Translations under genes and position numbers: made by a program
Notes under the pieces: model-generated
Seen by the model: the letters and a program-made list of their open reading frames with translations, nothing else
What the model was told of the DNA's origin: nothing
The model's database searches: none
From: Gekko japonicus
Taxonomy: Eukaryota
Length of the DNA stretch: 64,000 bases
Assembly: GCF_001447785.1 (NCBI RefSeq)
Contig: NW_015161409.1
Location: forward strand, 536,171 to 600,170
Direction of reading: 5' to 3'
In this document: one piece after another, positions 4,201-19,200 of the stretch
Numbering within the stretch: position 1 is the first letter of the stretch
How the letters are laid out: each line of letters begins with the position of its first letter

Positions 4201-7200
4201 ATCCGTATCCAGTTCAGATACCAAGGGGAAAATATTTAGGCCTGCCTTTAAGGAGTGGGCCCCTATTTTCAAGTATTTTACTCAAACACATGAATTGTAC
4301 ACATAAATGTCCTTCAGATTTGCTAACAAATTTATTATTTTGTGGTTGGGTATTCCATACATATGGAAAGTGAGAATCAGCTCTGTTACAGACACTATTG
4401 ACAATGAAATATGAAGTTTATTCATGTTGATGCCATTAAAATATAAATACTGTACATCATAATCCCTCCCTGAATCCACAATGTTAATTTTAGTTTTCTT
4501 TACCCTAGATTACAATACATTATTTATATTTTAATATCCCTGCTTAATTTTTATGCTTCCTGGGAAGACAAGGGGTTGTAAGGTAAGCTCTTTTTTCTTT
4601 TCAGTTAGTAATTACAAAGTTTACATTTTGATATATTTGTGGGATATTTCTTCTTTTCTCAGCAGAACAAATACCTTGTGTGTGTAAATATGCATACAGG
4701 GGGGAAAATCTGATTTGTTATTCAGCTTCGAAAGATTTTACAGCACCAGGGCAGATCTTCCTTTCCTGATGCTGAAAAGTCCCATGCTATTAATTGGTTG
4801 ATGCTATGGACAAAGGTTTGTATTTTCAAAAGACTTTGTGGCGTTAGATGCTCAATAAAATAGTGAATTTTTCACTATTTCACCTAGCAGTCATTAACTT
4901 TTTGGCAAGATTTCATTGTATTGTTCCTTGAATAATCAATAACAGATTAGACCAAATTATAATATCCAGGTTTTGATTTGTTGTTTGCAGACTAAGGTCT
5001 CTCTGGTCCAAAGTACTGTGGACTGCAGCTTGTCTACTTATGATCTGCCTGAGAGGGTAGAAACAATCTCTGGTCACATTTATACAGATAATTTTAGGTT
5101 GGTCTTCTTTAGCTGTGTTAACAGATTCCTTGAAGTTGGGAAGGCTGTATCCTGTAACTTGGATCCTTGTCCTGGTCAATTTATATGGGGAGAAGGTCAG
5201 GACTCCATTTATTAATGTCTCTTTGGTAGAAAGAGTTGTTCCAAAGTCTTTAAAGGAAATGGTGATTAGACTTATTGGAATAAACCATTTTTAGATAAAC
5301 AATTATATGCAGTATTTAATACTAATTATATGCAACTAATTATATTCAGTATTTAATACTGCTGATCATGCGGTCTCATTGAGATGCTTAGAGCTGAAGA
5401 TGAGTGTATGAAGAGTGGTTCTTGAGTTATTCTGGCCTTTCATAAGAGATCATATATGTAGGGGGGGCATAATGGATCTTGCAAGCTCCGTTTCTGAGAA
5501 TGTGGGAGAGAAAAAGCTATTCATCTTATGCAAGGCAGAGATGATCTGCCAGGCTGTTGGTTGAGGACAGCAATGGTTTTCTGTTGTGGCTGGCACGCTC
5601 CCCCTGTCTCCCTCCCCCTAACTCTGATCTTGTGCTTCCTCTATCCCTGCGCAAAAAGTGGCCAGGGAGTACAGAATCGGGATGTAATTTCTAGGGACAT
5701 CATCTTGGACTTCTTTTTAACCTGGTCTTCTTTTAACTTTCTTATTTAATTTTGTTATGATTGGAATTTTAACATTTTGTATATTTGTCTTATAGTTCTA
5801 TGCCTTTTTGTTGTACATCGCCTAGAGCCCTGCACAAGCAGGAATAGGGCAATAAACAAATAAATAAATAATAGAATAATTATTTCCCCTGGCACTGGTA
5901 TTTCTGGCCACTGTGTGATACAGAGTGTTGGACTGGATGGGCCTTTGGCCTGATCCAACATTGGCATCTCTTATGTTCTTATGTTCTTAATAATCCCTCC
6001 TGGATCCCTGTCCAACCCACTTCCCTCTCTTTTTTACACTCTGTCTGGGTTACTGCCACCTTCTTCTTCTTTCCCCCCCCCCAAACAACTTACTACAATA
6101 ACATACAATAGTCATTAACGTTGACGTGACCTACCTACCACGAAAACAACAATAACATTTAGAACTTCAGAAATATAAGAGTAAAGTAACCAATAAAAAT
6201 TTCAAACTTTAGGCTCTGCTTTTAGCATTTTACATCAGGACCAATGTTCCCTCTAAGCTGTGGAGTCTTGTGAGCAAAAATTCTACCTTGTGAACTACAG
6301 GCATTAAAGTTGTGAGCGAGTGATTTGGCTACTGCATTAAATTACTTTGCTCTGGAGCCATCCTTCCTGAGCTAAGGCAGAAATGTGTGAGCCAGAGGCT
6401 AAAAATCTGTGAGCTAGCTCACACTAACTCAGCTTAGAGGGAACACTGATCAGGACCCATTTTTGATAGTGCATATTTGCAGGTAAGATATCATGTGTGG
6501 TGAGAAAAGAGAAAATAGGGTACCAAGTTGATTCAAATTTGAGACTTGAAAATTGAGGTGTTTGAGCTCTATGGATTTTGTCTGCAATCTTAGCCATCAC
6601 GAATTGTTCCCATATTTTCTCATGCCAAGTAGCTATTGTTGGGGAAGAAGGAGATTTCCAGCATGACGCTATTGTCAGGCGCGCTGTGGCAAGGAGTAAT
6701 GAAATTATTTCTTTGTTCCTCTTATCTATGTCAGTATCCCATTGATTCAATAAAAAAACTTTGGGTTTGAAATGTAAATCCAAAGAGGTTATTTCCGTAA
6801 TCTCTTTTCGGACTGCATCCCAGAAATTGCCCAGTTGTGGACACTCCCACCAACAATGTAGATACCTACCAATCTTCCCACAGCCTTTCCAACATCGCGA
6901 GTCATTGTTTATGTTTATTTTCTGTAACTTCTGAGGGGTCATGTAGCATCTTGATAGCAGTTTGAAAAATTGCAGTCGGATATTAAAAATACTCGAGTGA
7001 TTGGCTGGAGAAGACCACACAGTGTCCCAGTCCGCTTCATCCTAGCAGACCGACAAATCCTCTTCCCATCGAAGTTGACATTTGAGTTTGGAGTGATTGT
7101 CTTCCGAAATGATCGTATTGTAAATTTTAGATAATATACCTTTCGGGAAAATTGGATAAAATTTAATAATTTTTTCTAAACTTGTTAGTTCTCTTCTAAA

Positions 7201-16200: not shown

Positions 16201-19200
16201 GTAAGTGCCACACTTGCAACCAATTATGTATTTCCCTGCTCCAGTCACCTCTTTTGTCACCATTTCTTGAAAGTCTTGGGCCCTCTCATGTAGTTAACTC
16301 TGCACTGCCCTGTGTTGCTCAATGCCAAATCTAGTGCAACTGAAGCTTTGCTTCTCCTGAAAAACTTACAAAGGGGGGAGCAGTGGTAGAGCATTGTTTC
16401 TGCTGTGGAAACAATTTAGGAATTTATTAAAATATTTATTTTCTTATCTTTTAAAACACACATTTCACCCAGTCAACATTAAACCTAATTGGAATAAGTA
16501 ATCGCTGTCTTTTTTTTACCTGCTGCTGAAAAGAGGTTCCAGGTAACGCTTTCACTTTGTAAGGCCTGTTCCATATTTCAGCATCCTCTTTCATTTACCG
16601 CTCACAAAACACTGATTGTCATTTTGGTGTCTCTAACATAAGTATCCCTGATCCTAGCAACTTTTAATATATCATCATATAACATTCCATATACATTCCA
16701 TATACATTCATATTCCAAAAACATTTCATTCGTTTTTGTGTATTTGTCAGATTTTTAACACACGTTTAAGATGCTGTACTCTGTTCTGGGTGTTTGTTTA
16801 ACCCTCTTAGTACTGACGCCTGAAGCAAATGTATGTTTTGGGAAAATTATAGGGCCAGCAGGAAAGGCACAGAAGTAGAAGTTTATTTTCTTTATAGGCT
16901 TGGAAACAAAATGAAACAGAAGTGAGGGCTTGATGGAAGTCCACGTTGGCCCAATGAGATAGGTTTGGGTTGAACCTAGACAGGGAGGAGGCCAGGGGCA
17001 AATTCAGATTGTATGGAAGCAGAAACAGAATTTGAAGGTGACTCGTTTCATATATTGACATAGTTCCAGTGTGAGGTAATGGATATGCAAAGGACAATAA
17101 GTAAAGTTCCTTAGGGAGGGGATTAAATAAAATGACATGTTAATGGTTGCCCAGGCAAGCCCAATCTCGGAAGCTAAGCAGGGCCAGCCCTGGCTAGTAT
17201 TTGGATGGGAGATCTCCAAGGAATACCAGGGTCGTGATGCAGAGGCAGGCAACCTCTGAATATTCTTTGCCTACAAGTCCCAATAGGGGTTACAGGAAGT
17301 CAGCTTGACTTGATGACCCCACCCCCCCAAAAAAAAAGATTACAGGGAGAATGGTTATGTGAAAAAAGGCACACAGATGAAATTACCGGAGGTTCCTAAT
17401 TGTTGTCTGATCACTTCTGATTCCCAGACTTTGGGGTAAAGCATTATCTCAGGGTGGGAGTTCTTCCGCACCCATCCTAGAACAGTCCCAGCAAGCATGA
17501 CTGAGTTAGGTGTGGGTTCATTTTTCACTTCAGTTTCTGCATTCAGGCATTTGCCTGAGTCCCCTTGCATCATCCATATTTAAATTTAAGGTGCATTGAG
17601 AGATAGGAAACAGGCCTCAGTACCAGAATGGGGGCTTGGGATAACAAAATGGGGTTTTGCAGCCTGTAATTTTTTTAAGATACAGTTGTATGTACAAGGC
17701 AAACTCATGAATATGATCATTACACAGACAATGATCTGGTAGGTTTCCCATAAACTTGCACACATAAATGGGTTTCATCTCTGAATTATGTAGAGATGTG
17801 AAGCATCTTAGTATCCCTGTAAATCTTAGCTGGTGCTAAAGAGAGGGAACCTCTTGTGGGGGATAAAAATCCCAGCTTGAGTAAAATTAAGCTGTGGATA
17901 CTAGCAGTGCAATTTCATTTTGAGAGGCTTCTATCTCTTACAGAAAATGGACGTGATTCTTTTTACATTTATTTAAGGCAGAAGATAGCCCCTAACTTGC
18001 ATAATATAATCTTACTGTTTGTTTTTTCCACTAATTACTTTTGAGCATGCAGATAATTTGGTCATGTGAATGCATTTTCAGTACTGTACGGGCAAATAGT
18101 TGTCATTGCCAGGCTGTCTTTAGTATATGCAAGAAGGGGGACCCGTGATACTCACAGGGAGGAGGAGCTCCACAGGGAGGAGGAGGAGGAAGCAGCCGCA
18201 GGTGAGCCTTCTCCCCCCCCCCAGCACCGATGTTGAGGCCCGCGCGGCTCCTAGTCGCCTGGCCCGCCAAGCCTTCTCCCCCACCCTTCTGGCACCAGCA
18301 GCAAGGGCTGTGTGGCTCCCAGCCGCTGGGCCCGCCAAGCCTTCTCCCCCACCCCCCAGCACCCATGGACAAGCCCCATGTGGCCCCCACCCCCCGGGCC
18401 CGCCAAGCCTTCTCCCCCCCAGCTCACACCCCCCCCCAGCGACAAGGGCAAGATAGTTGCCAGGGCATTCTCTGTGTATGCACAAGGAATGCTGTTTACT
18501 TTTGGGGGGATTTAAGTATCCCTCGTATACTTTTTTCAACTTTTTAGATTTTTCTGCACTCCTGGGGACTACTCCAAGTGTGCACGAAAATCTCTCTGCC
18601 CCCCAAGTGCCCCCAATGTGCAGATTTAGATATCCGCGTGGAGGGGGCAACTTGGCTATTAGATATATAGATGCCTTTTTAGGTTAGTGTTTAGAGACTA
18701 CACCTCTGCCTGCTGTAATGTGTGTGTTTTTTAATAACATGATTGTCATTCCTCATATTTATATGAAATTAAATTACTACAAACTTCATTTTTGTTCCGA
18801 TGCCATATTACGTGCCATATAAGCCTTTCTGTGATACATAGCTTTCAATTTAGATAAGGAATTGCATGTACTAGGAATATTATGTGATCCCCACTTCTTA
18901 ATGCATCAAGACGTTCAGAGGCACTGCTTACCAGAAGAGAGCACTAGCGACTTGTGGCTTTTTAGTCATATTTACTTTGCTTTGTTTACAGATATGCAGG
19001 TAGAACTCAGGTGGATACCCAGAGGCGCATTTACAAGAAAGCAGATTTGCTGGCACAGATCTGATCCACAGGGTGAAATCTTATTCCCCTACTGGATTTC
19101 AGCCCACACACAGCAATATTTGTCTGTTTCTCCATTTGTGTCTCACCTAGGGATGGGCACGAACTGAACCATGATGGGTCTACTATCACCAGAGGTCATT

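Follow-up and report, generated by a model that had tools for sequence, protein, structure and literature searches.

Two short exons of 15 and 9 nucleotides (nt), here termed m1 and m2, lie in the EML5 gene of a 64,000-nt stretch of Gekko japonicus DNA (contig NW_015161409.1; the whole stretch is called the window). With a probability of about 0.82, m1 and m2 are conserved EML5 cassette microexons that are skipped by default and likely included with SRRM3/SRRM4, and inclusion would lengthen the linker that precedes TAPE domain three.

Gene identity and exon layout

The gene in the window is identified from its sequence as EML5. The best 120 of the 167 proteins matched by the upstream exon in a protein search were EML5 or unnamed proteins, with 80-95% identity. 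Residues 1168-1977 of the 1977-amino-acid (aa) rodent EML5, up to its end, were collinear with the window exons, and the identity of these exons to Anolis EML5 was higher than that to rodent EML5. The named matches, the collinear exons and the HELP match placed the gene in the three-TAPE subfamily, as EML5 rather than EML6. EML5 is also what the first-pass annotation, made from the letters of the window, had proposed.

The coordinates, splice sites and frame given to m1 and m2 in that annotation were right (Table 1). The reading frame was kept in all four of the four inclusion patterns, with the peptides that had been predicted (R-PP, RQGVVR-PP, RGSR-PP and RQGVVRGSR-PP). Both exons are frame-preserving cassettes in the 3-27 nt size range of microexons, and both are variably present in annotated isoforms. 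As the exon at 28238 carries the third HELP motif, the m1 and m2 inserts fall in the linker ahead of the last TAPE unit, also as expected at the first pass.

Table 1. Features of the window around m1 and m2 (all on the forward strand; a slash marks an exon boundary)
Feature	Position	Strand	Remarks
Upstream EML5 exon	2649..2775	+	GYDSD...DE-R; ends ...GAAAG/GT, phase 2; spliced in RNA contig X5 record 10
Long form (74 nt) of the m1 exon	4509..4582	+	Alternative TAG acceptor 4506-4508; frame shift, TAA 4579-4581; predicted substrate of nonsense-mediated decay (NMD); one contig
Two UGC motifs before m1	4541-4543, 4554-4556	+	At -27/-14; the first sits in CCTGCTT and aligns with the fish contig
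Microexon m1, 15 nt	4568..4582	+	Adds QGVVR; acceptor GGAAG/, donor /GTAAGC; orthologue of human HsaEX0022381
AATAAA after m1	4854..4859	+	About 270 nt downstream
Reverse-transcriptase remnant (retroelement), m1-m2 intron	13428..13817	+	Pfam RVT_1
Tandem UGC motifs before m2	16521..16526	+	At -13/-10
Microexon m2, 9 nt	16534..16542	+	Adds GSR; acceptor AAAAG/, donor /GTAACG; EML6 has an identical peptide at this junction
Reverse-transcriptase remnant (retroelement), intron following m2	20666..21313	+	Pfam RVT_1
Downstream EML5 exon	26418..26496	+	PPVSR...RPIE
Third-HELP-motif exon, start of the last TAPE unit	28238..28369 (end approximate)	+	Pfam PF03451, E 3e-14

Conservation in EML5 and EML6

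Public NCBI and UniRef records of 260 proteins were sorted by linker pattern at the m1/m2 junction. Both microexons were skipped in 94 of the 260 proteins, the commonest class, and both were present in 64 (three with a single substitution), while m1 alone was found in 23 and m2 alone in seven. The rest comprised nine odd linkers, which were probably mispredicted, 45 proteins without the downstream motif and 18 that were not caught by the pattern. The independent skipping proposed at the first pass was overstated: all four EML5 linker forms exist in public proteins, ranging from fish to human, with three of the four in each of bichir and paddlefish, but the m2-only form was seen solely in ray-finned fishes and no species in the protein sample had all four. 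Across 118 long EML5 proteins, m1 was the sole recurring 5-aa indel. As to the first-pass view that automated annotation of this genome very likely misses the two exons, RNA-based lizard models contain the m1 and m2 pair (EML5, P0052; EML6, P0549), and the pair is garbled in some other protein models (P0006, P0022 and P0038).

A metagenome scan for orthologous DNA gave one locus (L001) from 58 candidate stretches, a fish contig with a teleost-like exon that ends before m2. It carries m1 at 3719-3733, with CCTGCTT upstream, a GAAG acceptor and a GTAAGCTC donor, and has a second UGC closer to its AG. When this contig was compared with the 23.6-kilobase interval between the upstream and downstream exons, only the m1 region was significant (25 of 27 nt, E 8e-6; the next best was 0.17), and the conservation peak anticipated over m1 and its splice sites was thereby obtained. 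Conservation of exon and upstream intron was observed for m1 at the DNA level, against this one fish contig, and for m2 at the protein level.

The paralogue EML6 was also surveyed. Among 120 EML6 proteins, 100 were of the skip form, seven carried RQGIVK, two carried RGSR, four carried both inserts and seven were other or unresolved. A further 72 EML6 cluster members comprised 36 of the skip form, eight with both, five with m1 only, one with m2 only, one ending at m1 and 21 other or unresolved; the eight with both came from macaque-group monkeys, a lizard, a crow, fishes and a frog. Because the pair also occurs in EML6, at the corresponding junction, sequence comparison suggests that the pair is likely older than the EML5/EML6 duplication. 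No statement that EML6 shares the two-microexon module at the EML5 junction was found in a literature search of main texts. None of the nine oyster EML5/6 proteins compared had an insert at this junction, and an oyster microexon there was rejected.

Several frog EML6 models (P0529, P0573, P0576, P0577, P0581, P0582 and P0586) have a longer, cysteine-containing insert starting with RFRYQC at the same junction. Two other indels were noted in EML5. At residue 282 in the numbering of P0031, a site beyond the window, an 8-aa insert was present in 23 of 117 EML5 proteins, those listed being from ray-finned fishes; it is possibly another small exon. A recurrent 7-aa indel at residue 1446 (GDSADMS region; window near 28614/32771) was present in 11 of 117 proteins and has an equivalent in EML6; it is probably an alternative splice site.

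Splice signals and published regulation

The acceptors of m1 and m2 both end in AAG, and each has four purines in positions -8 to -3, with A at -3. They are weak purine acceptors with UGC upstream, just as the first-pass annotation had described them. Among the other EML5 acceptors in the window, a UGC in -20 to -4 was found in one of 16 (boundaries partly approximate). As judged by eye and by counts, the eMIC-type signals (UGC before the AG, weak 3' splice-site context and strong donor) were present for both exons. GCATG is an RBFOX-type motif, and none was found within 300 nt of m1 or m2. The m2 acceptor has tandem AGs (AG/AG, 16532-16535); use of the second would yield a 7-nt frame-shifting exon.

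Strong donors, weak acceptor context and a UGC via which SRRM3/4 promote inclusion are given as features of microexons in a passage of bioRxiv 2024.09.17.613571. In the tables of Ciampi et al. (2022, PMC9303857) that were searched, the human EML5 exon with the VastDB identifier HsaEX0022381 is a 15-nt RetMIC that maps to residues 1336-1339 in the 1969-aa isoform, which is the m1 junction. Its percent spliced in (PSI) in these tables is 89.3 for retina, against 9.7 for other tissues (maximum 37.5; the neural value is NA), and its change in PSI is +15.6 for SRRM3, +20.5, +72.7 and +28.1 for SRRM4 in three cell lines, and 0 for MSI. Table S2 of Torres-Mendez et al. (2022, PMC8797185) lists an 11-nt mouse Eml5 exon (MmuEX0016814), extended to 15 nt by a second acceptor, as eMIC-sensitive, and a 9-nt mouse Eml6 exon (MmuEX0016830) as eMIC-dependent. 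The mouse Eml5 exon is probably the m1 orthologue, because m1 is the only recurring 5-aa EML5 indel, and the Srrm3/4-dependent 9-nt Eml6 exon is, from its length and gene, probably the paralogue of m2. No Eml5 or Eml6 splicing rows were found in the searched tables of PMC7935315 (12 of 19 files), PMC12626424, PMC7821500 (gene names only; tables may use coordinates), PMC13281805 and PMC12868881; the search of PMC7935315 gave an expression row only, 21-fold higher in neurons than in progenitors. The literature search found no main text with both 'EML5' and 'microexon'.

These data point to a mechanism in line with what is established for microexons in general. The AAG acceptors, being rich in purines, would be poorly recognised unless SRRM3/4 act at the nearby UGC, such that m1 and m2 would be skipped by default and included when SRRM3/SRRM4 are present, as in photoreceptors and neurons. 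From its motif and the probable Eml6 paralogue, m2 may be under the same SRRM3/4 control as m1. The SRRM3/4 signature claimed at the first pass was supported for m1 by the human orthologue and probably by the mouse one, but for m2 only the probable Eml6 paralogue is on record. The neuron-specific switch claimed with it was right in kind but overstated, as human m1 is retina-enriched and is included elsewhere at up to its maximum PSI of 37.5. On this analysis, neuronal use of m1 and m2 in this animal is likely.

The inserted residues and the linker

Inclusion would add 5, 3 or 8 residues to the linker in front of the third TAPE domain. This linker is basic, and the full insert brings in two further arginines along with two glycines; the linker segment, with a net charge of +3 and 42 residues when both exons are skipped, then has a charge of +5 and 50 residues. 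Passages of PMC4761370 state that in EML1-4 a basic region, together with a trimerisation domain, carries microtubule association, and describe EML5/6 as three HELP-WD units without a coiled coil; an older coiled-coil prediction is cited in a passage of PMC9037033. The insert might tune how the linker contacts the acidic tails of tubulin, or how far apart TAPE2 and TAPE3 lie, a function that is proposed here tentatively.

A phmmer alignment to 4CI8, in which the form with both microexons covered the insert and the skip form started at PVS, raised the idea that the insert rebuilds the EML1 segment before the HELP core. This idea failed: the scores against six EML1-4-like segments were 133 for the form with both, 141 for m1 only and 123 for skip, and a score of 133 was reached by 399 of 2000 shuffles of the insert and by 339 of 2000 shuffles of the whole segment.

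A serious rival is that the insert has a small or nil effect: the exons would be real and regulated, with residues that do little or nothing to EML5 and that are kept within the SRRM3/4 programme. The title of PMC12626420, which refers to minimal effects of microexon deletion in larval zebrafish, is consistent with this, as are the predominance of the skip class, the oyster EML5/6 proteins that lack an insert and the modelling of the insertion site as an exposed coil. However, the peptides are near-invariant over bony vertebrates and in both paralogues, which argues for selection on the residues themselves, and this rival is considered rather unlikely.

RNA evidence and longer forms of the m1 exon

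Four of 24 listed runs, of unspecified tissue, were mapped to positions 2000-17000, and repeat-derived reads were dominant. One run (X20) had zero depth on the upstream exons. With regard to neural or retinal enrichment, the short junctions were not among the joints listed for these four runs, and it is the human m1 that is retina-enriched. A single contig, X5 record 10, which has a depth of 5.3 and comes from a run whose RNA origin is a guess, joined 2775 to 4509 and followed the window sequence up to 4582 exactly. The resulting 74-nt exon has the exact m1 donor and a TAG acceptor 59 nt upstream of m1, preceded by a pyrimidine tract like the constitutive EML5 acceptors. The premature stop of this form lies far before the last junction, with at least 13 exons downstream, as in a poison exon. 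The first-pass statement that only 24 nt of the interval are coding does not take this form into account. A second contig (X1 record 1) reached 145 nt beyond 2353, that is 16 nt beyond 2775, a length that would suit m1 followed by the A that both continuations share; it was not counted as evidence.

Protein models of 1340 aa that end at m1 were found for sparrow EML5 (P0121), pangolin EML5 (P0215) and frog EML6 (P0574). Read-through of the m1 donor (4568-4586) meets a TAA at once, and the AATAAA at 4854 might serve as an intronic polyadenylation signal in transcripts that end at m1. A passage of PMC12182296 cites Eml5 variants with a truncated C-terminus. The 74-nt form and the forms ending at m1 may be regulated or may be splicing noise.

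Several points weigh against default skipping with SRRM3/4-promoted inclusion. No 15-nt or 9-nt junction of m1 or m2 was found in the contigs or among the 15 of 189 joints listed, all 15 of which were in repeats, and the sole contig through m1 takes an acceptor other than that of the 15-nt form. The mouse m1 is classed as 'sensitive' and not 'dependent', and was matched to m1 by length and not by sequence. EML5 m2 was absent from the supplementary tables searched (PMC9303857, PMC8797185, PMC7935315, PMC12626424, PMC7821500, PMC13281805 and PMC12868881). Many of the EML5 protein records are computed models rather than validated transcripts, and no experiment on the EML5 linker was found in the literature search.

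Alternatively, the m1 site might be mainly a dosage or truncation switch, in which the 15-nt exon is made with SRRM3/4, and otherwise either the 74-nt stop exon (predicted to lead to NMD) or the 1340-aa two-TAPE end. The join of 2775 to 4509 in a contig that stops at 4582, the upstream acceptor with its pyrimidine tract, the TAA at 4579, the models ending at m1, the AATAAA and the cited truncated variants would all fit such a switch. Against it, the join is from a single contig of low depth and guessed RNA origin, the fish contig L001 has no AG at the matching 59-nt-upstream distance, and no protein examined ends in the shifted-frame tail. In addition, any AG/GTAA donor in the same phase gives a read-through stop, the models ending there may reflect unspliced RNA, and splicing noise accounts for all of the evidence for the switch. 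The switch is judged improbable. If the stop-containing long form and the terminal-exon form of m1 were regulated, the dosage of EML5 in photoreceptors and neurons would be tied to whether the microexon is included. A more speculative version, and a doubtful one, is that m1, as the first member of an ancient pair in EML5 and EML6, acts as a three-way switch in both paralogues, with SRRM3/4 leading to the 15-nt exon, their absence to the 74-nt poison exon and cleavage to the 1340-aa two-TAPE protein. If this were true, one splice site would determine, for a tubulin-binding protein of neurons, the linker charge, the dosage and how many domains it has.

Chance background and intron content

The interval between the exons contains 401 frame-preserving AG..GT candidates of 3-51 nt. 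Thirteen candidates of up to 27 nt have a strong donor, with UGC present in three of the 13, and UGC was found near 351 of 1620 intronic AGs. The splice motifs of m1 and m2 are by themselves within chance expectation; m1 and m2 stand out from the chance candidates because they are conserved. Their peptide-coding patterns each occurred once in the interval, precisely at m1 and m2. That m1 and m2 resemble spliced exons by chance, within a long intron rich in repeats, and are not used as exons in this species would be in keeping with the 13 short strong-donor candidates and with short junctions not being seen directly, but is very improbable given the exact annotated peptides at the exact junction, the unique conservation peak against fish and the use of the m1 donor by the RNA contig.

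The description of the interval as filled with transposable elements was only roughly checked: RVT_1 was found in two of eight intronic open reading frames (ORFs) tested, and repeat coverage by reads was very deep. Long broken ORFs resembling LINE-type remnants were noted at 6424-7971 (-), 12898-14237 (+), 20666-22483 (+) and 23288-24629 (-). The m1-m2 intron also contains an inverted pair (9577-9756 and 15997-16180, 83% identical over 184 nt) that ends about 350 nt before m2 and is probably formed by repeat-element ends. The window also has two short N runs (1191-1217 and 34078-34096).

Significance and comparison with known systems

The novelty implied by the first-pass annotation did not hold, as both EML5 microexons are already annotated in public gene models and human m1 is a published SRRM3/4 target. 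The finding is an ordinary one, in which a catalogued human SRRM3/4 microexon is extended to a reptile-like genome. The sharing of the module with EML6 would date the pair to before the paralogue split and provides a ready comparative test, of modest value.

The human exon HsaEX0022381 and m1 have the same gene, length and protein junction, and the human exon is SRRM3/4-responsive. They differ in species, and neither the 9-nt partner nor the 74-nt form was in the PMC9303857 tables searched (files 13-18 were outside the search). The mouse Eml5 and Eml6 events fit the lengths of m1 and of the EML6 copy of m2, being matched by length and gene alone; the second acceptor of mouse Eml5 lies 4 nt inside the exon, whereas the extra acceptor here is 59 nt upstream of m1. 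Annotated EML5 and EML6 isoforms in NCBI and UniRef already show skip, m1-only, m2-only and both forms at the same junction, although they come without tissue or regulator data and many are computed models. The KDM1A/LSD1 microexon E8a has a longer NMD form, E8b, for which the literature search found no paper. E8a is a neural microexon that has its donor in common with a longer, frame-shifting exon beginning at an upstream acceptor, an arrangement like that at m1, where the long form was seen in one contig.

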